NCBI GenBank assembly: GCA_029551395.1
Contig: JAKPFN010000046.1
Span: 15,752 to 79,751 of the forward strand
Length of the DNA stretch: 64,000 bases
Reading direction: 5' to 3'
Origin: Armatimonadota bacterium
GTDB lineage: Bacteria; Armatimonadota; UBA5829; DTLH01
Shown: piece by piece, positions 42,971-57,619 of the stretch
Position numbering within the stretch: the stretch's first letter is position 1
Layout of the letters: every line of letters starts with the position of its first letter
Translations under genes and position numbers: made by a program
Notes under the pieces: model-generated
Told to the model about the DNA's origin: nothing
Databases searched by the model: none
Seen by the model: the letters and a program-made list of their open reading frames with translations, nothing else

Positions 42971-43784
42971 TTGGAATACCAGCAAGTTGCTTGAAACCTG
43001 TCTTGAGTCGATTTACCGGAATCCTCCGGCATTCAACTTCGAGGTGGTTGTAGTTGATAACGCGTCTTCTGACTTCAATCCCAAAGAAATGGCTGAGAAG
43101 TTCAAACAAACGGTGTTTATCGTAAACAGCGAGAACCTGGGATATGCTGAAGGCAATAATCAGGCAATTAAAGCTGTTAGTGGAGACTATGTACTTCTGC
43201 TAAACCCGGATACAGAGGTTAAGAACGATGCTCTTACGGTACTCGTAGAGTTTATGGAAGCACATCCAGAAGCTGCTGCTGCTGGATGCAGGCTCGTCAG
43301 ACCAGATGGCACAATTGACCGATCCTGCAGAGGCTTTCCTGAGCCAGGTCCGGTAGCTGCTGAGTTCTTTGGATTATCGAGATTGTTTCCCAACAGCAGA
43401 AAACTTGGCGCATACAGAATGACGTGGTTTGATTACAATGAAGAGGTTTCTGTCGATCAGCCAATGGGTTCATGTCTTATACTGAACCGCAAGACCATTA
43501 ATGAAATAGGTGTATTTGATCAAGATTTTCCGATATTCTTTAACGAAGTTGACTGGTGTTACAGGGCAAAACAAGCCAGATGGCAGATATACTTTACTCC
43601 ATCAGCCGAGATAATCCATCATGGTGGTGGAAGCACAAAGCAGGTCCGCCGTGAAATGAGAAGAGAATCGCACCGGTCGCTTATTCGGTTCTACAGGAAG
43701 CATTACAAAAAGCGGCTGTTTCCACCTGTGTATTGGTTTATTATTGCGTCAATAAAAGTCAGCGAGGTTCTTGGTGGCAGATAA
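42945..43784 (+). CDS. GT2 glycosyltransferase (WbbL-like)
   Basis: LSIIIVNWN, VVDNASSD, LLLNPD, FFNEVDWC; GTG start assumed. Confidence 0.9.
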   Translation: MRLSIIIVNWNTSKLLETCLESIYRNPPAFNFEVVVVDNASSDFNPKEMAEKFKQTVFIVNSENLGYAEGNNQAIKAVSGDYVLLLNPDTEVKNDALTVLVEFMEAHPEAAAAGCRLVRPDGTIDRSCRGFPEPGPVAAEFFGLSRLFPNSRKLGAYRMTWFDYNEEVSVDQPMGSCLILNRKTINEIGVFDQDFPIFFNEVDWCYRAKQARWQIYFTPSAEIIHHGGGSTKQVRREMRRESHRSLIRFYRKHYKKRLFPPVYWFIIASIKVSEVLGGR

Positions 43785-44685
43785 TTGTATTGATATCACA
43801 GTGAGTATAGTCAACTGGAATACCCGGGACGAGCTTCTGCGCTGTCTTGAAACCGTCACAGCACAAGAAGGCGTGTCTATGGAGATTATAGTTGTCGATA
43901 ATGCCTCTTCAGACTCAAGTGCCGAGGCTGTCGCTGAGAAGTTCCCTCAAATCCGGTTTATTGCAAATAGTAAGAACGTTGGATTCAGCAAGGCTCAGAA
44001 TCAGGCTATACGCGAGAGCAACAGCCGTTACGTTATGCTGCTGAACCCTGATGCCTTAATACATGATCGTGATACTCTTGCAAAAATCATCGAATTTGCG
44101 GATGCGAACCAGGATGTAGGCATCATTGGGCCGAAAATCGAGAATCCAGATGGCAGCTTACAGTTTTCAGCACGCCGTTTTCCTTCTATTGGCACAGGAC
44201 TGTTCCGCCGTACGCCTTTAGGCCGTCTGTTTCCAAATAATCGCTATGTCCGCAGCTACATTATGGCCGATTGGAAGCATGATGAAGTTCGGGATGTTGA
44301 TTGGGTCTCCGGTGCGGCTCTTGTTATTCGTAGAAAGACTATAGATGATATTGGCCTGCTTGATCCTGGCTTCTTTATGTATTGTGAGGATGTCGACTGG
44401 GCTTACCGAGCTAACAAAAAAGGATGGCGCGTTACATATTATCCGATGACCAAGGTAACTCACAGGATAGGCTCAGCCAGTGACCAGGTCCCAATTAAGA
44501 TGATTATCCAGTTCCACCGCAGTATGTTCCGGTTTTACCTGAAACACTACGCCAAGGGCCTTGCAGCGCTTCTAACACCTGTTGTACTTGCAGGGCTTAC
44601 AGCCAGAGCTGTCTTTTTTGTTATCCTCACAAAGGTTCCAATCTCCCAGCAGGCTCATGATGGTGGTGAACGGCTGGTTCGCTGA
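43771..44685 (+). CDS. GT2 glycosyltransferase (WbbL-like)
   Basis: SIVNWN, VVDNASSD, LLNPD, DWVSGA, FMYCEDVDW. Confidence 0.92.
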   Translation: MVADNCIDITVSIVNWNTRDELLRCLETVTAQEGVSMEIIVVDNASSDSSAEAVAEKFPQIRFIANSKNVGFSKAQNQAIRESNSRYVMLLNPDALIHDRDTLAKIIEFADANQDVGIIGPKIENPDGSLQFSARRFPSIGTGLFRRTPLGRLFPNNRYVRSYIMADWKHDEVRDVDWVSGAALVIRRKTIDDIGLLDPGFFMYCEDVDWAYRANKKGWRVTYYPMTKVTHRIGSASDQVPIKMIIQFHRSMFRFYLKHYAKGLAALLTPVVLAGLTARAVFFVILTKVPISQQAHDGGERLVR

Positions 44686-44709: not shown

Positions 44710-45876
44710 TCAGTTGACTGAGGAAAGATCCACTATCTCAACATCTGTGTAGTAGTGTTTTAGTATCTTATCGTACGTATGGTTATGAGGCTCGGATGCC
44801 ATCCCGTTAGCTCCCCACTGACAGAGGCCGACGCCATGTCCGTATCCTTTACCTTCGAATATGACGTTTCCATCTTCTATTTTGACTGAGAAGATCGTGC
44901 TCTTGATGACGGTATTGCCAAGCATTGTCCTGAGCCGAGTACCACTGATTGTTCGAGAGCCTTTATCTGCCTTTATGCTAAGGTCAGTAACTCTTCCGGT
45001 TTCATCTGTGTCAGTAACAGAGATATCTTTTAGTCCGCCCAGGTCAGAATACGTCTTTGCAAGGATTTTTTCAAACTCAGCAACAGGCCAGGATTTACTC
45101 CAAGTATGCCCTTTATGTTCACAGTAGTCACAGTCTCCCTGTGCTGGTCTATCAACTACTGAAGACAGGTATGCTTGTCCACCGCTTTTGGTAATACCTC
45201 CGCAATCAGAGCAAAACTGGGCAGAAATGAGCTTTCCATTGTAAACAAGAACCTGTCCGGCAGTCTGTTTTACAGCCTCAGAGGTTGAAGGTTTCTCATA
45301 CGCTGCACCATGATAAACTTGGCAGTCCGTAGAATCGCATAAATCGAAACCGGACTTGCCATGCCGTCCCCGACTGTTCCAAGCGTAAGTTCTGGCTGCA
45401 ACAGCCTGTGCTTTGAGCGCTTCCAGATGAAAGGTTGACGGCATCTCAGAAGGTAAAACACCGCGGACGTAGTCTTCGAGGTCTACAATATTCACGCAGG
45501 ACAACTTATCATCATTCAATTTGACTTCGATCTTCCCGTGGTACTCTGCAATGGGACAATCGTTAGATGCTAGTAGCAAAATACCTTCATTTGACGCGCA
45601 GTCTATTATAATGAGGCGATCTAGTATGCCTGAAGAGCCATCTGTGCGTGACAGTATTGTTTTCGAATCTTTTACTGAAAGTGTCACTCGTTCTGCTGCT
45701 GGTATCGTGGAAAGCACTGCTCCACTTGAGTCATAGATTCGGAATTCGGCTGTTGCGCTGACTGTTATGATGGGCTGATTCTTGAACCGGCTGATAAGTC
45801 CGATGCGAAGTTCAGCCCCAGTTGCACATATGGAGAAAGATAGCAGTATTGCAGTAATTAACAGCCTCAGTATCAT
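44710..45876 (-). CDS. SpoIID/LytB-domain peptidoglycan lytic protein
   Basis: LEDYVRGVLPSEM, EALKAQAVAARTY, CQVY, GYGHGVGLCQWGA, ILKHYY. Confidence 0.94.
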   Translation of the reverse strand: MILRLLITAILLSFSICATGAELRIGLISRFKNQPIITVSATAEFRIYDSSGAVLSTIPAAERVTLSVKDSKTILSRTDGSSGILDRLIIIDCASNEGILLLASNDCPIAEYHGKIEVKLNDDKLSCVNIVDLEDYVRGVLPSEMPSTFHLEALKAQAVAARTYAWNSRGRHGKSGFDLCDSTDCQVYHGAAYEKPSTSEAVKQTAGQVLVYNGKLISAQFCSDCGGITKSGGQAYLSSVVDRPAQGDCDYCEHKGHTWSKSWPVAEFEKILAKTYSDLGGLKDISVTDTDETGRVTDLSIKADKGSRTISGTRLRTMLGNTVIKSTIFSVKIEDGNVIFEGKGYGHGVGLCQWGANGMASEPHNHTYDKILKHYYTDVEIVDLSSVN

Positions 45877-45884
45877 AAAAACAC

Positions 45885-47357
45885 CTAATTTACAGTATCT
45901 TGATCATCAGGAGCGGTGTTTGTTGTATTCTGAGAAGCATCACGTTTCTTGATTTCCTGTTTTGCAATCTCCATTTGCCTGGCGGCTGAAGCATAGCTGG
46001 GATCAATAGCAAGGACTTTTTCAAACTCTGCAATAGCTTCTTCAAACCGATCTTGCCGCAAGTAGCACCGGCCAAGCCTGAAACGAGCGTCAGTATAATC
46101 AGGATCAAACTCCAGTGCCTCGTGGAGAAGTTTGATAGCGCCATCGAGATCGCGTCCGCGAGTTGCTGCATCTATAGCATCTGCGTATCTTTGACGACTG
46201 GCTCTTCGCACCGCATCCAGCTTCCAGGGCATCTCTGGGACAAGTGCTGGTTCTGCGAAAATGCCATATTTGAGCGCAGCAACCAGTTTGATACGAGCAT
46301 CTGACTGGTTGAATGCAAATCCGACCATTCCGTTCATTTCTCGTTTTCTTGACGCATCAAGCTGCTGGAGCACCATACTGACAGATTGGCTGAAGTTCAA
46401 CCCGCAGTATACATGCCTGTTATACTGCCACCGTCTGCATCCCTCTATCCAGTTTCGGTACTGTTGTGCATTCTTTGGTCTGCTCTCATCCTTGTAGTTC
46501 ATAGGGATGTTTGCATCCAGGATACCTTCTTCCATCCAGGCTCTCCAGTCCTGATAGACCTGCACATAGGGAGAAGTGTTGCTGAAGCTGGATGAGCAAT
46601 CACCCCAGGGAATCGTTGCCGCAGTTACTTTTACTTTTGGTTTATGAAGGTTGACTTGCTGATATATTTTCCTTACAACCTTAGTTACCTGGTCTCGTCT
46701 CCACTGTTTCCATACAAGGTCGCTATTGGATGGGGTACCGGATCGATATTTTTCCGAGTTGAACGCTACAATTGCCGCAGGAGCGTAACCGAACTCTGGG
46801 CCAGGATAACGGATATAGTCCAAATGGATGCCGTCAACATCATAGTTCTTCACAATGTCCATGCATATGTTTACTATATAGTCCTGCACTTCCGGTATAC
46901 CAGGGTCCAAATACAAACCTTCACTTGCCTTAGTTTCTCCAGATGCGTTTCTGGTAATCCAATCCGGGTGTTGATGGACAACATGTGATGGATCAGTCGG
47001 CAGTTCCTGGGCAGACCATGCACGAAATGTATTCAACCATGCGTGAACTTCCAGACCTTCTGCATGAGCTTTTTCGATCACATAAGCCAGAGGGTCATAA
47101 TCGGGAAGGTTCTCGATGTTTTTCGCTCTGGGTTCAAAGCTGGACTTGTAGTAGGCATCGCCGACTTTACGAACCTGTATGAAGAGCGCGTTCAAATTGG
47201 CCTCTTTAGCAAGGCGGATAGTCTCGTCAGCTTCCTCAGGAGTAAGAAAACCGTTGGACCATGCTGTTACCCATGCTCCGCGGAACTCGTATCTCGGTCC
47301 ATCTGCAAAACACAAACTCGATGATATAAGAAGCAGTAGTGCTAAAATGTATCTAAT
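45885..47357 (-). CDS. GHL10 (DUF187/YddW-like) glycoside hydrolase with C-terminal TPRs; probable ATT start
   Basis: EFRGAWV, QVR..GDAYY.S, DPLA...AH..GLEVHAW, YDVDGIHLDYIRY, QDWRAW; signal peptide is complete only from ATT 47357. Confidence 0.88.
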   Translation of the reverse strand: MRYILALLLLISSSLCFADGPRYEFRGAWVTAWSNGFLTPEEADETIRLAKEANLNALFIQVRKVGDAYYKSSFEPRAKNIENLPDYDPLAYVIEKAHAEGLEVHAWLNTFRAWSAQELPTDPSHVVHQHPDWITRNASGETKASEGLYLDPGIPEVQDYIVNICMDIVKNYDVDGIHLDYIRYPGPEFGYAPAAIVAFNSEKYRSGTPSNSDLVWKQWRRDQVTKVVRKIYQQVNLHKPKVKVTAATIPWGDCSSSFSNTSPYVQVYQDWRAWMEEGILDANIPMNYKDESRPKNAQQYRNWIEGCRRWQYNRHVYCGLNFSQSVSMVLQQLDASRKREMNGMVGFAFNQSDARIKLVAALKYGIFAEPALVPEMPWKLDAVRRASRQRYADAIDAATRGRDLDGAIKLLHEALEFDPDYTDARFRLGRCYLRQDRFEEAIAEFEKVLAIDPSYASAARQMEIAKQEIKKRDASQNTTNTAPDDQDTVN

Positions 47358-47512: not shown

Positions 47513-48631
47513 ATGCAACACGGACACGATGCGTGGGTCGAAGTAGACCTTTCAGCTATAAAGCATAATGTAGAGCAGGTTCGGTCTTACATTGGACATG
47601 ACATACATCTAATGGCAGTAGTCAAAGCCGATGCCTATGGTCATGGTGCCGTTGAGACAGCTAAGGCTATGCTGGATGCTGGGGCAGATGCGCTTGCTGT
47701 TACAAGGCTTAACGAAGCTGCACGGTTAAGAGCAGGTGGAGTGACAGCACCTATCCTGGTTTTCGATGCAATCCAGCCTGAAGCAGCAGAAGAAGCAGTT
47801 GCACTGGATGTGGAGCTTACAGTATGTTCTCAAGAACTTGCTGCAGCGCTTGGCAATGCTGCCAGAAACGCAAATAAGCAGGTAAGTGTCCATCTAAAGG
47901 TGGATACAGGTATGGGCAGGCTGGGAGTGCTTCCCAAAGATGCTCCAAACCTTACACGCACAATAGTATCATCAGGTTTGACGCTTACAGGCACTTATAC
48001 CCATTTTGCAACTGCTGCAGAAAAAGACCTGACACTGGCAAAGGAACAATTGGAACGGTTCAAAGAGGCTATTAGGTTGATAGAGCAGGCGTTTCTTGAT
48101 CCTGGAATAGTTCATGCAGCCAATAGTGCGGCTATACTCAGGCTTCCGGAGTCTCATTTCGGAATGGTCAGGCCGGGAACGATTCTTTACGGACAATATC
48201 CATCGCGATATGTACCTCAATCGCTCGATTTGAAGGATACGTGGAAGCTAAAAGCGCGTATCAGTTGCCTGAAAACGCTTCCTGCAGGCTATAACATCGG
48301 TTATGGCGCTGAATATACTACAAGAAAAGAGAAACGCATTGCCGTAATTCCCCTTGGATGGGCAGATGGGCTGACATTGATGCCTGAAAGCATTGCAAGG
48401 AGAAGTTGGCTCAAAATGGCGCTTGCGAAGGCTTTCCATAGACCTATGTTGACTGTCAACATTCGCAGGAAAAAGGCAAAAGTGGTTGGGCGCATTGCCA
48501 TGCAGATGTGTTCTGTCGATGTGACCCGAATCCCCGATGTTTCTGTTGGTGATGAGGTTACGATTCCTGCCCGAAGAGTAACTACAAGTCCTCTCTTACC
48601 CAGAGTCTATATAAACAAGGATAGTTCCTAA
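47513..48631 (+). CDS. alr: Alanine racemase
   Basis: AVVKADAYGHG, HLKVDTGMGRLG, THFATA, HAANS, RPG, IGYG. Confidence 0.96.
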   Translation: MQHGHDAWVEVDLSAIKHNVEQVRSYIGHDIHLMAVVKADAYGHGAVETAKAMLDAGADALAVTRLNEAARLRAGGVTAPILVFDAIQPEAAEEAVALDVELTVCSQELAAALGNAARNANKQVSVHLKVDTGMGRLGVLPKDAPNLTRTIVSSGLTLTGTYTHFATAAEKDLTLAKEQLERFKEAIRLIEQAFLDPGIVHAANSAAILRLPESHFGMVRPGTILYGQYPSRYVPQSLDLKDTWKLKARISCLKTLPAGYNIGYGAEYTTRKEKRIAVIPLGWADGLTLMPESIARRSWLKMALAKAFHRPMLTVNIRRKKAKVVGRIAMQMCSVDVTRIPDVSVGDEVTIPARRVTTSPLLPRVYINKDSS

Positions 48632-48674: not shown

Positions 48675-48703
48675 TTGACGACTATATGTACTAGTGTTAC
48701 ACT
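48675..48703 (+). promoter_or_regulatory. Sigma70-type promoter of the SEDS-PBP/FHA/kinase operon
   Basis: TTGACG-17 nt-TACACT with extended TG; supports ATG 48735 as the start. Confidence 0.6.
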
Positions 48704-48734
48704 TGAGTTAGCTGGAGGGGAACAGAGAGGGAAA

Positions 48735-51700
48735 ATGCTCCCGATACTACTTCTTGTTGTGTCGCTGATTGTGCTGACTGCCATCTTTGCCCGTGCACCA
48801 CGGCGGGCAGAGGGGCTGTTAATCGCCTACCTTATGCCATGCCTCGCATTCTTTGCTTACGTCACCTGGCACAACAAGACAGCAGAGCTTAACCATACAG
48901 GTGTCAACATCAATACAGCAACGCCAGCAGAAATCGCTCAAGCCACTGGAATACACTTGGAGCTTGCAGAACTACTGACTGAGTATCGAGAAACTAACGG
49001 ACGTTATTCTTCATTGTCATCTATTCCAACGTTAGGTAGTGCGAGTATTGCAGACAGGAAAGATATCAGGCAGCTTTCAGAGAAAAAAGATTGGAAAACC
49101 TTAGGGGAGATTGCAAATACCGGAAAAATCCCTGATTCTGCCCGGCCTGGATTGATCAAAGGCGTTGTTCGTGCGGCAAACCCTGGTCAAAAGCAATCTT
49201 CAGGCCTGTTGCCCGAAATGGACCTTCGCGCTAGAGCTATTCAAGCACAGCCTGATCCTGAAATAGACCTGGCTAAAAGCCCAAGAGAGATTCTCCTGGG
49301 TGTATTAGGAAATGAAGCCGTTGTAGACCGAATAATCCAGTTTAGAAGGACAGAGTGGAGACCTGCACCTGGTGAAGTACTTCGTATCTCTGACATCCCG
49401 GCTGTACCAAAAGATAAAATTGTTCTAAGAACAAAAGAAGAGGCCACTCAACTTTTCTGGCTGGTCATATTCTTACTTATTGGATTTGTGATAGGTCTGC
49501 ATGTTCACTTAAAGAGACGCAATTCAACGGCAGATGAGTTTCTACTGCCTCTTATGGGGGCGCTTGGAGTGCTCTCTGTAATCATGCTTTTTTCCGTATC
49601 ATCGCCGTTGAAAGTGCCTGCTGCTGTACCAGGTATTCCGTTGCTGTTTGGTTCTGCACAGCCCAAATATATTGGTCAGGCGCTTGCTGTGTTTCTTGGA
49701 TTGGCATTGCTTCCGTTTGCTTATCGTGGAGTTCGGTTCATAGAACGGTCGGCAACTATGGAGGTGCTGGCGCTTGCTGCTTTAGGACCGCTTGCTGCGA
49801 ATGTATTTGCCAGCAGTGGCGCGGGTTCGATTCCTGCCATTCTAATCTGTGGCGCGTTGATTGCTGCTGGCCTGTATCGTATGGAAAGACGGAAATCAGC
49901 TCAGTATACCGCTGTTGGAACTATAGTCATCGCATTGCTAGCTATAGGAAGAATCCTTGCCGGAAGGTCCGGATATGCTCCATTTTTCGAGTTTGGGAAG
50001 ATCGCTCTGATTATCTACACAGCCCGACTCTGCGCAGAACATGATTTCTTTTTTGGAGGCAAGCTCAAACAGCTTCCAAGCTCAGCAGTTGTGCATTTTG
50101 TCAGTGTTTGGTTGGTTGCGATACTGCTGACCTTGTTAGTGAAAGATATGGGAGTCCTCCTTCTTCTGTGGGTTCCATGTATCCTGCTGATTGGATTCGC
50201 ATTTTCACGCAGGGAAGTGCTTGCAGGTCTTGCAATGCTTCTCATCGGTGCAAAAATAGTCCAATTATTGTCGCTTGGACCATTTCAGGACCGGGTTGCT
50301 ATGTGGCTCAACCCGTGGACTTATATTCCAACATCCGGTTATGCCTTCAGCAGTCAGATGGCGCAGGCATTACATCGAATAGCTTCCGTGCCAAGCCCGA
50401 TTGCAGGAATGGGGCTGGGGCGCGGAACATTAGCCAGTATCGCAACGGATACGCAGGATGTAATCCTTCCGCTTTATTTCGAGCAGCTTGGTTTTATTGG
50501 CGTAGCCCTGGTAGTGCTAATCTATCTTGTCATAATGCACAGGCTTTTTAGAATCGGGGTGCATGCGCAGGATAGGTTCTCACATTGGCTGTGTCTGGGA
50601 TTTGCAAGTGTATTTGCTGTGCAAAGCGTATATATGATTGGTGCTAATTTTGGAGCATGGCCTCTGACTGGTGTCACACTTGCCCCGATTGCCTTTGGGA
50701 AAGCTGCTTGTTTTTCAGCATTTGTGATGGTATGGATTTCTCTTGGGGTTTCGGAAACTGCGGGTGAGAGTCCTGCTGGACATGTACCGAAAAAACGGGT
50801 GAGGACGATTGGATGGGTGTTTGCAGGACTCATATTGCTATCTTTATGGTCTGTAGGAAAAGCGCTTAAAATCGGTGTTATAGACCGCGATGTAAATGCT
50901 CTTGCACATTACGGACCTGGCCGCGTAATGAACTCTCGAATTGCTGCTAAACTGGCTTCATTGCCACGCGGCAGTATCCTTGCACGAGGCATGTCATCCA
51001 GTTACAAGAATACCAAGGTTCTGGCAGGACAGGATAAGAACATAAATACACGTATATACACGCTTGGGCCTGCTGCCTGGCCTGTAGTTGGCGTCACAGG
51101 GCCATTTGGAACTACAGGTGGTGAAAGCTTATGGAGAAGTTACCTGACTGGAACGCATGCGTTGGTTCAGAAAGGTTCAGTGGTAGAGAATCCTCAGATA
51201 ACGTTAGAGACTGCTCTGTTGTCTAAGTGGCGAGCAGAACATCATCCATTATGGCGAGCTAGTTCTGAATGGGATGAAAGGCTGGAGCCGCAAGATGTGC
51301 AGACTACCATTATATCTTCACTGCAACTCGAGGCTTACAGGCGGCTGTCGGATTACCTATCTGGATCGCTCCATAGAAATGGTTTGCGGCCGAGAAAGGG
51401 TGCTATACTGATTGTTGATGTGCGGACAGGCGAGTATCTTGCAAAGGTGCAATATCCATCGGTTGATCCGAACATGATCAGGTCTGGATGGATTGCTTGG
51501 GACAGGTTTGTCACCAGTCCCAATGGATATGTAGACTCGAATGGTCAGATAATCGATCTAGTCGACAACACAGACCGTGCGCCAGGGTCGACTGCAAAGC
51601 TGAATACTATTATGGCATTGCTTTCTTCAGGACAAGGAAAAGCAAAGTTCTACTGCGCGCCTGGAATCAAGGTCAATGGACATAGGATCAATGATTTTGG

Positions 51701-52313
51701 CGATGCTGCGCACGGTTGGGTTGATGCAGAAAAGATAATAAAATACAGTTGTAATAGAGGTGCGGCTCAGGCTGCACAGGCAGTTGGACCTAACCAGTTG
51801 CTTTTATTTTATCGAGAGAAATTAAGGTATCGGCTTCCACACATGCCTCGTCCGGAGGATAACTTCCGAGCTAATTATGATAAAATCGCCTTTGGACAGA
51901 CTATATCCGCCAGCTTGAAGGAGATGATGACCACCGTAAGTGCGATTGCAAGAGGTGGTGAAGCTATAGAACTGCATGTAGTCCGCAAACGGCCGGAAGA
52001 TGTAGAAAAGTGGAGAGTATGCAGCCAGAGCACAGCATCTGCGCTAACCAGATATATGGTTTCTGCAGCAAAGCCAGGTGGGACTGCATACAGCGTCTAT
52101 GAGAATAAGGTAGTCTGGCCTTCCAAGACTGGTTCCGCTGAGGTAGCTGGTGCAAAAAAGACCGACGCCTGGTTTGTAGGTTTTGCACCGGCAGATAATC
52201 CAAGGGTAGCGTTTGTCCTCTGGGTCGAAGAGGATGGCACAGGCAGCAACATGGCCAAACAAATCGGCGTTGTGCCTCTTGTGCAGCAAGCGCTTGATAT
52301 CACAGGTAAATAA
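48735..52313 (+). CDS. Fusion: ComEA-like helix-hairpin-helix + SEDS (RodA/FtsW) + class B PBP transpeptidase
   Basis: VNINTATPAEI..ATGI...LAE....YRETNGRY; SEDS motifs AD.FLLP, EFGK, KDMG, WLNPW, EQLG, PLTGV; PBP motifs PGSTAK, SCN, KTGSAE. Confidence 0.88.
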   Translation: MLPILLLVVSLIVLTAIFARAPRRAEGLLIAYLMPCLAFFAYVTWHNKTAELNHTGVNINTATPAEIAQATGIHLELAELLTEYRETNGRYSSLSSIPTLGSASIADRKDIRQLSEKKDWKTLGEIANTGKIPDSARPGLIKGVVRAANPGQKQSSGLLPEMDLRARAIQAQPDPEIDLAKSPREILLGVLGNEAVVDRIIQFRRTEWRPAPGEVLRISDIPAVPKDKIVLRTKEEATQLFWLVIFLLIGFVIGLHVHLKRRNSTADEFLLPLMGALGVLSVIMLFSVSSPLKVPAAVPGIPLLFGSAQPKYIGQALAVFLGLALLPFAYRGVRFIERSATMEVLALAALGPLAANVFASSGAGSIPAILICGALIAAGLYRMERRKSAQYTAVGTIVIALLAIGRILAGRSGYAPFFEFGKIALIIYTARLCAEHDFFFGGKLKQLPSSAVVHFVSVWLVAILLTLLVKDMGVLLLLWVPCILLIGFAFSRREVLAGLAMLLIGAKIVQLLSLGPFQDRVAMWLNPWTYIPTSGYAFSSQMAQALHRIASVPSPIAGMGLGRGTLASIATDTQDVILPLYFEQLGFIGVALVVLIYLVIMHRLFRIGVHAQDRFSHWLCLGFASVFAVQSVYMIGANFGAWPLTGVTLAPIAFGKAACFSAFVMVWISLGVSETAGESPAGHVPKKRVRTIGWVFAGLILLSLWSVGKALKIGVIDRDVNALAHYGPGRVMNSRIAAKLASLPRGSILARGMSSSYKNTKVLAGQDKNINTRIYTLGPAAWPVVGVTGPFGTTGGESLWRSYLTGTHALVQKGSVVENPQITLETALLSKWRAEHHPLWRASSEWDERLEPQDVQTTIISSLQLEAYRRLSDYLSGSLHRNGLRPRKGAILIVDVRTGEYLAKVQYPSVDPNMIRSGWIAWDRFVTSPNGYVDSNGQIIDLVDNTDRAPGSTAKLNTIMALLSSGQGKAKFYCAPGIKVNGHRINDFGDAAHGWVDAEKIIKYSCNRGAAQAAQAVGPNQLLLFYREKLRYRLPHMPRPEDNFRANYDKIAFGQTISASLKEMMTTVSAIARGGEAIELHVVRKRPEDVEKWRVCSQSTASALTRYMVSAAKPGGTAYSVYENKVVWPSKTGSAEVAGAKKTDAWFVGFAPADNPRVAFVLWVEEDGTGSNMAKQIGVVPLVQQALDITGK

Positions 52314-52315
52314 CT

Positions 52316-53662
52316 TTGGTAAGACAAGTATTTGAGCAGTTAATACAGTTTTTTTCTGATGCTGCAGTGTCAGGAAGAGTCCGGCACGAAGGTCAGATGA
52401 CGCGAGTCGAACTTTCAGGCGGAGAGTCAGTTGATCGGATAACCGGTTATATTGGTAAAGCGTGCCAGTCTGCCATCGATCGTTCGATAGAAGGCGTCAT
52501 GCTTGGCCCGGAGCAGCGTCTTCCTGCAGCAAATAATCTATTAGTGTCGGTCTACCTTGAACACAGCCGCGCAGTAAAGTATCAGAAGGTAACGGATACA
52601 AGAGATTTAGCCCGGAACCTGTCTCGTGCAATGACGGAATATGCGCATAAGCAGCGGTATCTGCTTGTTGGAAATAAAGTTGAGGTGCCTGGGATTTCAA
52701 TTCGAGACCTGGACGAGACAGGAAGAGAACGGGTAGAGGTCTTCTGGCGGCGTTCTGAGATAACTGTGGATGGAAGCGCTCAAGCTCCTGTTATAGTCAG
52801 ACCTCGAAACGAACCGAGCAGACCTGAAGTAATATGTTCGGATAAAATAACAGCCGAATCTAATGAAGACGAAGCGAGATTATCAGAGCCGTTTACATTA
52901 TGGGTCAAAGACGGCAACCAGGAACCTGTTTTATGGGATAATCTGCTTACCCCGTTCTATTTTGGGAAAGAAACAAAGCATCCCCAGGTAGAATTTGAGT
53001 TCGCACAAAAGGATCAGATTTCACGGGATCACTTTGCTATCCTCTACTTGCCAAGAGAGCGGTTCCTTATCAGAAACAACGGACGCAATGGAACAATAGT
53101 GATCCGTGGAGACCGAGCATTAAGGTTATACACTCCACCGTCATTGCAAAACGGACCGAAAAGCGCGCAAATTGCAAGACTTGCGGATGGTGATATCATA
53201 AGGCTACAGGCTGGACCGCTGGAGGCTACAAGAATAGTCCAGATGGCATTTTGCCGTCCCGGAACGCAGGTTGAGGACATTAAATGGGCTGATAGTCTTG
53301 AGAAACTGGATTGCGGCGATGTAATCGAGCCGGTAGTCCGCAGAATAAGACAAAACGGCCCGCTCGAGCAGTTTACCTTGATATGCGGCGACCAATATCT
53401 TGGCAGCGCAATCACTCAAGGGATAAAATTTGCTTATTCTGAGGATGATCCTGGTTTTGTTGGCGGTTCGGCAATAGCTTTGGTCAGTAATTTCGGCAGG
53501 CTTACCATCAGATGGCTCAATGCAGATATACCTGCAGTAGTCGGTGGAACTTCGCTGCAAGTAAATAAGGCTGTTGCGCTTCGTCCTGGTGATGAGCTTG
53601 TTTTTGGTGGATCTGGATGCGCTATTCCAGAGACAAAGGTCAAATTTGAATGGATTGAGTAG
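52316..53662 (+). CDS. FhaA-like protein (DUF3662-like N-terminus, FHA, second degenerate FHA-like domain)
   Basis: AANNLLVSV..LARNL...EYA....YLLVG; FHA FGK..ISRDH..NGRNGT..LADGDII; C-terminal LRPGDELVFG. Confidence 0.7.
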   Translation: MVRQVFEQLIQFFSDAAVSGRVRHEGQMTRVELSGGESVDRITGYIGKACQSAIDRSIEGVMLGPEQRLPAANNLLVSVYLEHSRAVKYQKVTDTRDLARNLSRAMTEYAHKQRYLLVGNKVEVPGISIRDLDETGRERVEVFWRRSEITVDGSAQAPVIVRPRNEPSRPEVICSDKITAESNEDEARLSEPFTLWVKDGNQEPVLWDNLLTPFYFGKETKHPQVEFEFAQKDQISRDHFAILYLPRERFLIRNNGRNGTIVIRGDRALRLYTPPSLQNGPKSAQIARLADGDIIRLQAGPLEATRIVQMAFCRPGTQVEDIKWADSLEKLDCGDVIEPVVRRIRQNGPLEQFTLICGDQYLGSAITQGIKFAYSEDDPGFVGGSAIALVSNFGRLTIRWLNADIPAVVGGTSLQVNKAVALRPGDELVFGGSGCAIPETKVKFEWIE

Positions 53663-53683: not shown

Positions 53684-54187
53684 ATGGAATACGTTCTGAA
53701 TTGGCTTGTTCTAATACTGGCGCTTGGAGCTATACTGCTGGTAGCATTCCTGTGCTATGCGGACATTACTCGTAGGAGTGACCATAGTCCTGAATCTAGA
53801 GCTGTTACGCATGTTGAATATACTGCTGAGCCATCTACAGTAGCAGCAGCTTCAGATGGAATGTATGTAGAGCTTGCATACTGCAGAAATGATGTTGTGG
53901 AGCACGTTCAAAAGGTATACCCATACGAAGCAGGATATGTGGGAACAGAATCGTATCCAGCAATGGGAGCAGGGATGCCTGTTAGATGCCTGGAAGTATG
54001 CTGGCGGAATGGCGATCTCGTTTGCTGCAACCTGGACTGGCAAACACAGGTTGGTCTTCCAGATGAGAACGGAGAGCTAATAGCAATTGAAATAGGCCAG
54101 TCAGTTGTCATCGATGATGGAGCGGAGTTGCATGTCGGGAATGACTGGGTCATCCGCTGCACGATTCATGGAAGGACAGAAGAATGA
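53684..54187 (+). CDS. FhaB-like membrane protein (N-terminal TM + degenerate FHA-like fold)
   Basis: TM at about residues 5-25; C-terminal IDDGAELHVG resembles the FHA end strand; GR/SxxH/NG not found. Confidence 0.5.
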   Translation: MEYVLNWLVLILALGAILLVAFLCYADITRRSDHSPESRAVTHVEYTAEPSTVAAASDGMYVELAYCRNDVVEHVQKVYPYEAGYVGTESYPAMGAGMPVRCLEVCWRNGDLVCCNLDWQTQVGLPDENGELIAIEIGQSVVIDDGAELHVGNDWVIRCTIHGRTEE

Positions 54188-55458
54188 GGACTGTTGTCGA
54201 TCTTGCCGGATTTTCCATAGCTAAAGAACGACCAGATGGACATAATGAAGACTGTTTCGAATTTCTTCCTGAGCCTGGAGATGGTCCAGCAGCCTGGGCA
54301 GATTTTGCAGCCATAGTGGTAGACGGTGTAGGCAGTTCAGCAGACCCTCAACGCGCGGCTATGATGGCTGCACACAGTTGGTTGGATCATGCAGAGGCTA
54401 AGTTTATAGAAAACGGCGATAAATGCGCCGGATTTACAGCACGGCATTTTGATGAAATAACCAGACATGCATTTGTCCAGGCTCATGAAGCTGTTCATTT
54501 GACCGCAGGCAGCGCTTGTGCAGTTGCTGCTTGTATTCAAGGAGATAAACTGATTGCAGGCAATGTAGGCGACTGCCGTATTTACATGATATCCGCAGGT
54601 AGATTGTTGCAGGTTTCGAAAGACCAGGTTGATTCGATCGGTGACCCTACTGATCTAATAGGCGGAAAACGTGTTCCAGTTCCTCATACTGTGTCAGATA
54701 TCAGGGTTAAGGCCGGAGATATATTGATCTTATGCACTGACGGTGTCTGGAAATATATAATGCCTGCAGATTTATTGAATTGCGCAGTATCTGGCAATGC
54801 TAAGGATATATCTGCGCGTATCGAACAAACACTGCGGTCACGGCGAAAGCCTGAATCAGATGACGCAACTGCTGTAGTTGCCATAATAAAACGAATAGGG
54901 CTGCCATTTTGGGAAAATGACTCGTATTCAGGAGAAAGTGTATTGAGAGACGATCTTGTTGAGAATAAGCTGAATGAGGTATTGGCTGAGCTGCTTAACC
55001 GGATTCGAACCCCGCTTGAACGCCAACATGCAAAGGCAGATCAGGCAGTTTCTCAGTTGTCATCGGCTGTAAATGATTTAAAGGCAGAACTGGAGTCTCT
55101 GCGGGCGGAGACAGCGCAAATTGGCAACCAAAGAAAGCCTGCAGGTTCGGACTGGAAGGCATCGTATGGGGTAATTGCTCTCAGTGTGCTGCTTTTCATC
55201 GGCGGCATAGTGATAGGTTGGGAACTTAGAGACTTTGCCAAGTCTTATAAAACTCGAGATATTACGCCAGAACTGCCTCAGAATGCTAAGGTATTATCAC
55301 AGCAATACACGGAGAACGACAGGCTCCTTGTCAGATTTGTAGGTAAAGATCAAAAGCAAAAACTGGCAGTGTTCCGTCTGGAAGATGGCGGAAAACCATT
55401 TGCAATAATAGACGATCCAAATCCTCCTGAAAAGAATAACGATGTTCAAGTGCCTTAA
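54184..55458 (+). CDS. PP2C-family phosphatase with coiled coil and TM (PstP-like)
   Basis: HNEDC, VDGVG, GNVGDCRIY, LCTDGV, DDATAV; TM YGVIALSVLLFIGGIVIGW. Confidence 0.88.
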   Translation: MRTVVDLAGFSIAKERPDGHNEDCFEFLPEPGDGPAAWADFAAIVVDGVGSSADPQRAAMMAAHSWLDHAEAKFIENGDKCAGFTARHFDEITRHAFVQAHEAVHLTAGSACAVAACIQGDKLIAGNVGDCRIYMISAGRLLQVSKDQVDSIGDPTDLIGGKRVPVPHTVSDIRVKAGDILILCTDGVWKYIMPADLLNCAVSGNAKDISARIEQTLRSRRKPESDDATAVVAIIKRIGLPFWENDSYSGESVLRDDLVENKLNEVLAELLNRIRTPLERQHAKADQAVSQLSSAVNDLKAELESLRAETAQIGNQRKPAGSDWKASYGVIALSVLLFIGGIVIGWELRDFAKSYKTRDITPELPQNAKVLSQQYTENDRLLVRFVGKDQKQKLAVFRLEDGGKPFAIIDDPNPPEKNNDVQVP

Positions 55459-57619
55459 ATGCGGTTTAGAGTTCGAAGATACTCCGCCTGAGTATTGTCC
55501 GGTCTGCCAGACACTTTGTTATGTGTGTCCGTGGTGCGGCAGGATGACTGATGCTTCTACATCGCACTGCGGGATGCAGGATTGTGAGCAGCCGATAAAA
55601 TATGTCCGCATGACACCTGACCTGCGCGATGTAATGCGTTTGGGGTGGGGAGAGTTAGTTGAAATTGGGCATGTCGAAGTCAGGATAGAGCGTGCCTTTT
55701 ATTTCAGCGCCAGAGTCACAGTCTACAGAGCCAGAGTAATCAGCACCACAGGAGGTAGAAAGTCAGAACCAAGACCAGGGGAAGTAGTAGTGGTGCGAGA
55801 GGTGATGGACGAGTGCTCGAAACGTGTAGAAGCTGTCATCTCCAAACTGTTATCAGTGCGCCATCCAAACATCGTTAGGACCTATGCAGGTGCTGCAGAT
55901 GAGTCAAGAGGCTGTTACAGATTGCTTCAGGCGTGGATAGGTGACCGCGATCTGGCATCAGACCATCTTCAAGAGAAAGGTGGACAATCAGCAGATAACC
56001 TCAGGTTGGCTCAGATAGCGTTTGATCTGGCGCATGCTTTGGAGTATTTACACGAAAAAGGGATTATCCACTGCGATCTTACACCATTTAACGTTCTTCT
56101 GACAGATGACGGAACACCTGTTATATCGGATTTTGGGATTGCCACACTTACTGATGATCCAGGCCGCCCAAGAGGTTACACGCCAGGTTATTCGCCAGTA
56201 GAAATGCTTCCTCCTGAGGACGTTCCTCAAGATATCCTCGGCCGGAGTTGGTCTATAGGTACCCATACAGATCGTTTTATGCTGGGTGCGACGCTATTTT
56301 GTATCTCATGCGGTCGAGGTGTAAGAGATGCCCATCCGGTAACAAGGACTCCTGTGCTTGTGCCACCGGTGGATCGGATAAGATATGACCTGGGGTATGG
56401 CGGGTCACCACAGGCACCACTGACAGCAATCAAACGAGATATCGACTCGGGATTAGCAGAATGGATCGAAACACTAATATCGATAGAACCTGATGCTCGT
56501 TTCCGAAACGACTCAGAGATGGTCAGCCGAATTACGAAACTCGCCAAGCAGGTTGGGAGACGGAAAATAATCCCATATCTATGGTCAGGTCGGATGCGGA
56601 AGCCTTTGAAGGCCGCAGCCCTGGTTTTTATCGTCTTGATGCTAGTTTTCTTGGTCAGACATTCTTATACTCTCACGAATTCCCCAAGAAACCTGTATGC
56701 GTTGGCTGTATCAGATATAGCAGGACTGTTTAAAAGACACGATATTGCTCTAAAAGCATTAGATAACGCACCTGTACCTTCGGCAGAGATAAGTTGGGCA
56801 AGAGGTCGCGCATTGGAGCGGCTTGGAATGCTGGATGAAGCGATGGATGCGTATAAGAACAGCGTAAAAATCGATCCATCGTTTACAACAGCAGTCAAAG
56901 CAGTTGAAAGAACTCGTACGACGCTTGGAATGACAAGCCTACAGCGCGGATTGCAGCTTTATCGGGCTGGTGAGTATTATCTTGCAGATCAGCAGCTTAC
57001 CAAGGCTGAAAAACACGGGATGACATCGCTTGAAGGTTACAAGGCTCTTGCTCATATTGCAGAACGGCGAGGTCAGATATCCCGCGCAGCAAAATACTGG
57101 GACAAAATATGTACATTGGATCCGCGCAGCGTAAAAGCGCACTATCGAGCATCAATACTGTTTCTTGATTCGAAAAACCTCAATAAAGCTTATCATCATG
57201 CTGCAAAGGCCCGCGACCTGTACTACAAGCCAAAACCAAAGGATAATGTAGGGAAGGCTGAGATGGAATCTCTTATTGAGGATGTTTCGAAAGCCTGCCT
57301 GCGTGAAGGATATTTGGACATATCAAAAGTAACCAGTGTCCGGCGTATTTATGAAAAAATGGTCTGGGTAGAAAGAGCAAAGAACCTCAATCCGACAGCA
57401 GAAGTCTACACCAAACTGGGGAATTATGAAGAGCGGCTTGGAGACCTTGCTTTGTCTGACAAGCGATTGAACCACTACAACAAGGCAGTAGATCACCTTA
57501 AGAAAGCACGCAAACTGAAGCCTGGGTCGATATCGATAAACACACATCTTGCCCGCTGCATCGCCAAGTCTAAAGCACATCAGGTAAGACTCAGCATTAA
57601 ATCTTTCCTTCAATCATAA
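55442..57619 (+). CDS. Ser/Thr kinase-like protein (double zinc ribbon, atypical kinase domain, TM, TPRs)
   Basis: CLKC/CPVC/CPWC; HPNIV, HCDLTPFN, SDFGIA, YTPGYSPVE; TM then TPR-like helices. Confidence 0.88.
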   Translation: MFKCLKCGLEFEDTPPEYCPVCQTLCYVCPWCGRMTDASTSHCGMQDCEQPIKYVRMTPDLRDVMRLGWGELVEIGHVEVRIERAFYFSARVTVYRARVISTTGGRKSEPRPGEVVVVREVMDECSKRVEAVISKLLSVRHPNIVRTYAGAADESRGCYRLLQAWIGDRDLASDHLQEKGGQSADNLRLAQIAFDLAHALEYLHEKGIIHCDLTPFNVLLTDDGTPVISDFGIATLTDDPGRPRGYTPGYSPVEMLPPEDVPQDILGRSWSIGTHTDRFMLGATLFCISCGRGVRDAHPVTRTPVLVPPVDRIRYDLGYGGSPQAPLTAIKRDIDSGLAEWIETLISIEPDARFRNDSEMVSRITKLAKQVGRRKIIPYLWSGRMRKPLKAAALVFIVLMLVFLVRHSYTLTNSPRNLYALAVSDIAGLFKRHDIALKALDNAPVPSAEISWARGRALERLGMLDEAMDAYKNSVKIDPSFTTAVKAVERTRTTLGMTSLQRGLQLYRAGEYYLADQQLTKAEKHGMTSLEGYKALAHIAERRGQISRAAKYWDKICTLDPRSVKAHYRASILFLDSKNLNKAYHHAAKARDLYYKPKPKDNVGKAEMESLIEDVSKACLREGYLDISKVTSVRRIYEKMVWVERAKNLNPTAEVYTKLGNYEERLGDLALSDKRLNHYNKAVDHLKKARKLKPGSISINTHLARCIAKSKAHQVRLSIKSFLQS

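Follow-up and report, generated by a model that had tools for sequence, protein, structure and literature searches.

A candidate accessory peptidoglycan synthase of Armatimonadota joins SEDS and class B PBP parts to a helix-hairpin-helix ectodomain in one chain

Why would a cell-wall synthase carry a helix-hairpin-helix (HhH) domain of the kind known from ComEA? This question is raised by a gene in a 64,000-nucleotide stretch of a draft genome of an Armatimonadota bacterium (contig JAKPFN010000046.1, positions 15,752 to 79,751; the whole stretch is called the window here). A sequence-only reading of the window had described the product as a fusion of HhH, RodA-like and penicillin-binding protein (PBP) parts, and had proposed that the HhH part couples wall synthesis to DNA outside the membrane. 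We found that the gene product is a single chain with a cell-wall polymerase of the SEDS family, a cross-linker (class B PBP, bPBP) and an HhH domain, and that this architecture is real. With moderate confidence, we interpret the protein as an accessory single-chain peptidoglycan synthase whose ectodomain would be an integral part with a structural or regulatory role rather than one that binds DNA. We infer its enzymatic activity, its control by phosphorylation and the role of its ectodomain from the observations below.

The gene lies in a single open frame (48675..52313, + strand) and was called from 48735 to 52313, giving a protein of 1192 aa, in agreement with the uninterrupted reading frame of about 1190 aa that had been reported. 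GGAGGGG/GAGGG stands just before the ATG at 48735, and relatives share the start position. Three Pfam families each exceed their curated cut-off in the product: HHH_3 at residues 53-95 (33.3 bits vs a cut-off of 27, E 5e-8), FTSW_RODA_SPOVE (PF01098) at residues 419-668 (102.9 bits vs 26.4) and Transpeptidase (PF00905) at residues 889-1176 (112.7 bits). The HhH signature that had been noticed corresponds to a match to part of the generic HHH_3 profile (positions 2-44 of 65 only). The full-length AlphaFold2 model, built with an alignment of 57 fusion proteins as input, has a mean predicted local distance difference test (pLDDT) score of 91.4 and a predicted template modelling (pTM) score of 0.88. 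Conservation figures given below refer to this alignment of 57 fusions, and close-family figures refer to 10 family members. Transfer RNA and Rfam scans of the window gave no matches. The gene was divided into the following features (TM, transmembrane helix).

48735..52313, + strand: whole gene, encoding TM-TM-(ectodomain with two HhH-like modules)-TM-SEDS-TM-class B PBP (reading frame and start, Pfam, AlphaFold2)
48735..48869, + strand: hydrophobic helices A (residues 1-19) and B (residues 27-45), linked by the basic loop RAPRRAEG (hydropathy; AlphaFold2 helices 2-18 and 24-51)
48870..49448, + strand: predicted extracytoplasmic N-domain (residues 46-238), compact and mainly helical (AlphaFold2 of the domain alone; family identity)
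48891..49088, + strand: HhH module 1 (residues 53-118), ComEA/Tex-like, without the second hairpin glycine (Pfam HHH_3, phmmer, Foldseek)
49248..49448, + strand: HhH-like module 2 (residues 172-238), ending in an L-R-T motif before TM helix C (hhalign; repeated helix pattern)
49452..49511, + strand: extra TM helix C (residues 240-259), predicted to bring the chain back to the cytoplasm, then the basic loop KRRN (hydropathy 2.39; AlphaFold2 helix 234-261)
49533..50753, + strand: SEDS glycosyltransferase domain (residues 267-673) with an extra helical hairpin at about 342-382 (Pfam; conserved D267, E419 and D575; hydropathy and AlphaFold2 helices)
50790..50882, + strand: membrane anchor of the bPBP part (residues 686-716; hydropathy; AlphaFold2 helix 686-716)
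50883..51398, + strand: pedestal-like region of the bPBP part (residues 717-888; Foldseek alignment length)
51399..52262, + strand: transpeptidase domain (residues 889-1176) with S952-x-x-K, S1005-x-N and K1131-T-G (Pfam, motifs, conservation)

Both enzymatic parts had been recognised from their motifs, and the SEDS domain and the transpeptidase with intact SxxK, SxN and KTG were confirmed by the Pfam matches and by motifs at EFGK 419, KDMG 470, TQDV 573, PLTGV 643, STAK 952, SCN 1005 and KTG 1131. D575 is invariant in the 57 fusions, E419 is at least 90% conserved, and each of S952, K955, S1005, N1007 and K1131 is either invariant or conserved in 90% or more. SEDS proteins carry acidic residues on their outer face, namely the Glu of the P-S-E motif and the Asp of extracellular loop 4, and E419 and D575 take these places in the window protein. 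In Foldseek, the full model retrieved PBPs only, among the matches listed; its PBP part aligns with PBP3, with gonococcal PBP2 and with M. tuberculosis PBPA (3upo_A, TMt 0.73). The alignments to PBP3 and M. tuberculosis PBPA extend over 440-520 columns, longer than the 290-aa transpeptidase domain. PBP_dimer gave no Pfam match at E <= 1 in the window protein. We also observed that the SEDS part has its extra helical hairpin (residues 342-382, positions 49758-49880) between TM2 and TM3, and that the loop before the E419 motif is shortened.

In other assemblies, nine full-length proteins (1185-1348 aa) are collinear with the window protein over 99-100% of the query, at 33-68% identity. The Armatimonadota loci L008-L010 are collinear as well, and two of them encode two of those nine proteins. 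The collinear fusion recurs in 10 or more independent assemblies and is thus no artefact, which settles the doubt about misassembly that had been raised with the first description. A HMMER scan returned 9344 proteins at E <= 0.001, and most of the best 150 representatives are fusions of SEDS and bPBP with a length of about 870-1400 aa. By an iterative profile of module 1, 22 of the best 150 fusion representatives carry the module (one at E 0.005 only), and HHH_3 exceeds the Pfam cut-off in all nine module carriers tested and in the distant relative at locus L035. All module-bearing fusions with an organism name belong to Armatimonadota. The cultured species Chthonomonas calidirosea has the architecture (RefSeq WP_016482306.1, annotated as 'FtsW/RodA/SpoVE family cell cycle protein'), and the HHH_3-SEDS-bPBP Pfam architecture is already precomputed for database relatives. 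Uniqueness of the three-part architecture was thus not supported, given these 22 representatives, and SEDS-bPBP fusions as such are described in two papers (PMC10449877, PMC12516126).

Within the phylum, the N-domain was detected at E <= 0.001 in 11 of 201 genomes. Near-full-length matches occur in six of the 201, including the window's own (ORFs of 1221-1427 aa), and the N-domain query found nothing in the three genomes of the same family or in the nine of the same order. As judged from these searches, the protein's own family is patchy within the phylum. Among 1589 word-sharing candidates in a word-limited query, none of the shorter proteins (30-654 aa) contained the N-domain at E <= 0.001.

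The two N-terminal hydrophobic helices that had been reported were recovered by both hydropathy and AlphaFold2. In the loop between them, R20, P22, R23, E26 and G27 are invariant in the 10 family members, and an R-x-x-E-G basic tail before the anchoring TM is conserved. TM helix C directly precedes SEDS TM1; helix 269-288, with a D..LL..G..S pattern, aligns with the first SEDS helix of the 57 fusions, where D267, L277 and P291 are at least 90% conserved. All five distant relatives inspected show a basic N-terminal tail, a TM, one or more HhH modules, a TM, a basic loop and SEDS TM1, and in four of the five the Pfam SEDS model begins at profile positions 4-8 at SEDS TM1. SEDS N-termini are cytoplasmic, and the transpeptidase has to be outside. 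Because the SEDS part starts in the cytoplasm, the transpeptidase lies outside and residues 46-238 sit between two extra TMs, the HhH region is predicted to lie outside the cytoplasmic membrane. The earlier proposal of the same location is upheld by hydropathy, which reveals helix C, by the basic tail and loops, and by the layout of the relatives. A signal peptide formed by helix A was considered and rejected on parity grounds.

When the N-domain (residues 46-238) was modelled alone, AlphaFold2 returned a single compact unit (pLDDT 91.2, pTM 0.86). The nearest solved chains by sequence in phmmer are the HhH repeats of EEPD1 (9yi2, E 4e-6) and ComEA (8dfk, E 0.0017). Foldseek gave a local match to ComEA 8dss_B (41 columns, root-mean-square deviation (rmsd) 1.3 Å, probability 0.93), and other local HhH matches to Tex, XPF/ERCC1 and KIF22. 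Over the whole domain, Foldseek against the PDB found no analogue (best E 0.57, none at E <= 0.001), and an ESM Atlas search with residues 46-238 gave no usable match. In the proposed structural comparison with ComEA, the local HhH match was therefore obtained and a whole-domain analogue was not. Whole-domain Foldseek rows such as DotM and PPAR-gamma have an rmsd above 10 Å and were discarded as noise.

A weaker second HhH copy had also been suggested, and this was partly borne out. Modules 1 and 2 align in register in hhalign (41 columns, P 1e-3), the helix pattern of module 1 recurs in module 2 of the AlphaFold2 model, and a second HHH is plainly tandem in distant relatives. However, the hhalign probability is 22%, and Pfam has no match to module 2. 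R232, within this module, is at least 90% conserved in the 57 fusions. Across the family, identity is 31-60% in the N-domain vs 33-68% in the whole protein. The ectodomain is nearly as conserved as the whole protein, and this comparison therefore indicates that it is under selection and functional. In distant relatives (L035 6558-9923; P0030, P0057 and P0135), the HhH modules match T2SSK (GspK) below threshold, at 20.7-22.4 bits vs 24.2. GspK, too, is extracytoplasmic and has HhH/SAM-like modules.

To describe the hairpins, residues were counted in 34 modules, drawn from 27 proteins after exclusion of two fragments (P0002 and P0005) and of later-fetched cluster members. The first hairpin glycine is present in 13 of 34 modules, the second in two (with Pro in 16), and a lysine at the ComEA position in one. 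In the first hairpin of the 10 family members, the second glycine is absent throughout, the residue aligned with the ComEA lysine is hydrophobic in all 10, and the residue just before it is acidic in seven. In ComEA, the hairpin lysine has a role in DNA binding. In these counts, the canonical, phosphate-binding form of the hairpin is not retained. The conserved positions are those of the scaffold: N-x-N, Ala, the Y/F-R arginine, P-x-L-G and L-R-T. Modules 1 and 2 of the window protein are acidic (isoelectric points (pI) 5.2 and 5.4), and the ComEA models of NCBIfam stay under their cut-offs (TIGR00426, 28.4 vs 53.1; TIGR01259, 25.4 vs 152). Since the hairpin glycines and basic residues are unconserved and the scaffold residues are conserved, we infer a structural or regulatory role for the ectodomain rather than DNA binding. 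ComEA-like DNA binding by the ectodomain, and with it the proposed coupling of wall synthesis to DNA, thus appears unlikely: the hairpins are degenerate, the modules acidic, the ComEA models under cut-off, and only about 41 residues superpose.

The comparison with ComEA (8dfk, 8dss) can be stated more fully. Both proteins share the VNxNTA start, the helix-hairpin-helix and the Y/F-R helix, and both would be extracytoplasmic and membrane-anchored. In contrast to ComEA, the window protein's match to the HHH_3 profile ends two thirds of the way along, neither the G-h-G hairpins nor the lysines are conserved, the ComEA models of NCBIfam are under cut-off, and the two modules are merged into a larger compact domain without a PDB analogue.

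The fusion gene is the first of five tightly spaced or overlapping genes in the order fusion, FHA, 167-aa protein, PP2C, Ser/Thr kinase, and an alanine racemase gene stands upstream of it.

52316..53662, + strand: FHA-domain protein of 448 aa, no TM, starting 2 nt past the synthase stop (Pfam FHA, 28.1 bits)
53684..54187, + strand: 167-aa protein, without a Pfam family, that has a single TM at its N-terminus (orthologue in L099, E 6.5e-13)
54184..55458, + strand: PP2C phosphatase with a C-terminal TM at about residue 326 and an ATGA overlap with the preceding gene (Pfam)
55442..57619, + strand: Ser/Thr kinase with a Cys-rich N-terminus, a kinase domain, one TM at about residue 387 and an outer TPR domain (Pfam Pkinase and TPR)
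47513-48631, + strand: alanine racemase (alr; Ala_racemase_N/C), directly upstream with a gap of about 100 nt (Pfam domains)

The five-gene order is also found in L010 and L099, and thus in 3/3 family loci with at least 5 kb downstream. The L010 synthase is 31% identical to that of the window, and L099 belongs to another family within the phylum; downstream of the fusion, L008 and L009 are too short for an operon comparison. When FHA, PP2C, kinase and alr were compared with 80 genome loci by phmmer, all three signalling genes matched in L010 only, and scattered kinase matches were seen beside unrelated fusions. The adjacency of alr is not conserved, with no match in L099. The operon contains no competence genes. 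In position and size, we take the 167-aa protein to be like the mycobacterial small membrane FHA protein FhaB/FipA, although no FHA match was found in it. Past its TM, the kinase has TPR matches and no PASTA match in Pfam; its Cys-rich N-terminus (four CxxC) is zinc-ribbon-like.

The actinobacterial fhaA-fhaB-pstP-rodA-pbpA-pknA-pknB cluster, which is Rv0020c-Rv0014c in M. tuberculosis, has the same components: SEDS, bPBP, one or more FHA proteins, a membrane PP2C and a membrane Ser/Thr kinase, co-oriented in one operon. Unlike this cluster, the window has SEDS and PBP as one chain, placed first and bearing an HhH ectodomain, and it has a single kinase, the outer domain of which consists of TPR and not PASTA repeats. 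Further upstream, two divergent wall-remodelling genes were observed at 44710-47315 (-), encoding a 388-aa protein with a SpoIID domain and a 476-aa GHL10 glycosyl-hydrolase-like protein that has TPRs at its C-terminus, and a family-2 glycosyltransferase gene lies at 43771-44685 (+).

The fusion is accompanied by two canonical SEDS proteins in all four genomes checked (G000, which is the window's own, G001, G063 and G201). In the window's genome, the canonical SEDS genes score 327 and 342 bits, and FtsI-like and PBP2-like canonical bPBPs are encoded as well. Because two canonical SEDS exist besides the fusion, together with canonical bPBPs, we consider the fusion an accessory third synthase. 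The same genome encodes a ComEA-type protein of 231 aa with intact hairpins (PGVGP, KGIGPKK), Tex and a 130-aa HHH_3 protein.

Natural SEDS-bPBP chimeras have been surveyed as putative 'bifunctional class B' synthases in Microlife 2025 (PMC12516126). In its accessible text, this survey covers fusions beside kinase and phosphatase genes, gives examples from Rhodococcus jostii, Paraphotobacterium marinum and Pedobacter ginsengisoli, and ties such chimeras to elongation. A passage of Nygaard et al. 2023 (PMC10449877) also mentions natural SEDS-PBP fusions and cites the Rhodococcus RHA1 genome paper. As the survey text describes them, the chimeras have an N-terminal FtsW/RodA/SpoVE glycosyltransferase, a TM linker and a C-terminal transpeptidase in one ORF, and a canonical FtsW/FtsI pair coexists with them (PMC12516126). 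The window protein has the same glycosyltransferase, TM linker and transpeptidase in an uninterrupted ORF, conserved in relatives. It differs from the surveyed chimeras in its N-terminal TM-ectodomain-TM addition, which is not reported for them in the accessible part of the survey (PMC12516126). The terms helix-hairpin, ComEA, HHH and Armatimonad are absent from the main text of PMC12516126, whose supplements may list such architectures, and full-text literature searches found, among the papers listed, no HhH or ComEA-like domain described on a SEDS protein or a PBP. New here are the HhH ectodomain, the Armatimonadota clade and the conserved five-gene operon, and already known is a natural SEDS-bPBP fusion under Ser/Thr phospho-control.

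Relatives within Armatimonadota show the architecture at two distances. The Chthonomonas calidirosea WP_016482306.1 group (P0057/P0166 cluster) has the same basic tail, TM, one or two HhH modules, TM, SEDS, TM and bPBP. As in the window's genome, the fusion is a third SEDS in the one genome with a distant HHH_3-SEDS-bPBP relative that was checked (G201, which holds L035). These distant relatives differ in having 22-28% overall identity, a complete canonical SEDS match and weak PBP_dimer matches, whereas the window's family has a longer ectodomain and the extra helical hairpin in the SEDS part. In another phylum, the loci L011-L060 (Anaerococcus, Peptoniphilaceae) show SEDS-bPBP-like matches in many cultured species of Anaerococcus, covering roughly residues 419-1170 of the query. 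These matches suggest further natural fusions in Bacillota, and the HhH module was not detected there.

Several observations count against our interpretation of the protein as an accessory synthase with a non-DNA-binding ectodomain. The first hairpin glycine is kept in 7 of 10 close family members, and the whole ectodomain of relatives has a net charge of 0 to +14 and a pI of 7.0-11.6, that is, neutral to strongly basic, which leaves room for a polyanion ligand. The Pfam SEDS match spans profile positions 106-346 only, probably because of the extra hairpin and the shortened loop. The RodA, FtsW, SpoVE and PBP2 equivalogs of NCBIfam are far under cut-off (71-87 bits vs 337-449 for the SEDS ones). 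By these scores the SEDS part is a divergent third paralogue and not a RodA/FtsW/SpoVE orthologue, and with the partial match its enzymatic activity is therefore assumed from motifs. AlphaFold2, read with DSSP, shows residues 386-435 as one long helix, which was not reconciled with a TM3-loop-TM4 hairpin; the topology argument is independent of this helix. As for the operon, a 326-aa ORF follows the fusion in L009 and has no match to Pfam or to the window's FHA protein, and the distant HhH fusion in L035, the sole distant locus examined, lies outside an FHA/PP2C/kinase operon.

How do other explanations compare? We think it improbable that the periplasmic HhH binds DNA as ComEA does, or another phosphate-rich polyanion, and thereby couples wall synthesis to extracellular or incoming DNA. 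This idea draws on the HHH_3 score above the Pfam cut-off, on ComEA 8dfk being among the best sequence matches of solved structures, on the close local superposition on 8dss_B, on the predicted extracytoplasmic location and on an ectodomain that is basic overall in several relatives. However, the second hairpin glycine is missing from the family and rare among the modules, the ComEA lysine position is mostly hydrophobic and often preceded by an acidic residue, and both ComEA models fall short of their cut-offs. Moreover, both modules of the window protein are acidic, a canonical ComEA with intact hairpins is encoded elsewhere in the genome, and competence genes are absent from the operon. It is very unlikely that the HhH region is cytoplasmic, with helix A as an N-in anchor or a signal peptide, and binds chromosomal DNA or a cytoplasmic partner. 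Helix A does end in I-F-A followed by R, loosely like a signal-peptidase site, but a cytoplasmic HhH region would invert SEDS TM1 and place the transpeptidase in the cytoplasm. Where relatives have only one TM at the N-terminus, this TM follows a basic tail, and another TM precedes SEDS TM1; the R-x-x-E-G tail is conserved.

The fused RodA-PBP2 could also be the main elongation synthase, replacing the separate pair instead of supplementing it. The alr gene directly upstream and the link of chimeras to elongation in the accessible survey text (PMC12516126) would fit such a role, but the two canonical SEDS and two canonical bPBPs of the genome do not, nor does the patchy occurrence of the fusion (full-domain matches in 6/201 genomes, 0/3 of the same family and 0/9 of the same order); we hold this to be unlikely. 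That two or three genes were joined by misassembly or sequencing error, or by faulty gene calling, is next to impossible. Although the genome is a draft of 165 contigs, the nine collinear proteins and loci L008-L010 come from elsewhere, the linker TM and the pedestal are modelled at high confidence, and GC is even along the gene.

In the accessory-synthase interpretation that we favour, the SEDS part (catalytic D575, with E419) would polymerise lipid II into glycan strands, and the C-terminal bPBP part (S952), tethered by its own TM after SEDS TM10, would cross-link them. The N-terminal addition would run from a cytoplasmic basic tail through a TM, an ectodomain of about 190 aa and another TM to SEDS TM1, and would set a compact domain in the periplasm beside the polymerase. 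This ectodomain, apparently built from two degenerate ComEA/Tex-type helix-hairpin-helix modules, could dock on the outer parts of the synthase, on nascent glycan, on lipid-linked substrate or on a partner, e.g., the outer TPR domain of the kinase. A predicted complex of the PBP ectodomain (713-1192) and the N-domain (46-238) scored 0.31 vs a mark of 0.32, without controls. By analogy, the co-transcribed Ser/Thr kinase, PP2C phosphatase and one or more FHA readers probably control the activity from the cytoplasm.

A more speculative idea, to which we give little credence, is that the ectodomain senses a phosphate-bearing envelope polymer or lipid and gates a private kinase-controlled peptidoglycan synthase. 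Its ligand may then be transforming or extracellular DNA, an undecaprenyl-pyrophosphate-linked glycan or a teichoic-acid-like polymer. If true, this would be a way, unrecognised before, in which Armatimonadota tie wall synthesis to a polyanion outside the cytoplasm.

The window protein is not evidence that wall synthesis is coupled to DNA. It exemplifies the reuse of an HhH scaffold on the extracytoplasmic side, apparently without the DNA-binding hairpins. SEDS-bPBP pairs are core wall-building machines and antibiotic targets, and the mechanism of their outer-face activators is an active question. With polymerase, cross-linker and a conserved ectodomain in one chain, the protein would be handy for structural work on the regulation of SEDS-bPBP pairs, and the kinase/phosphatase/FHA operon setting and a relative in the cultured Chthonomonas calidirosea add to its usefulness.

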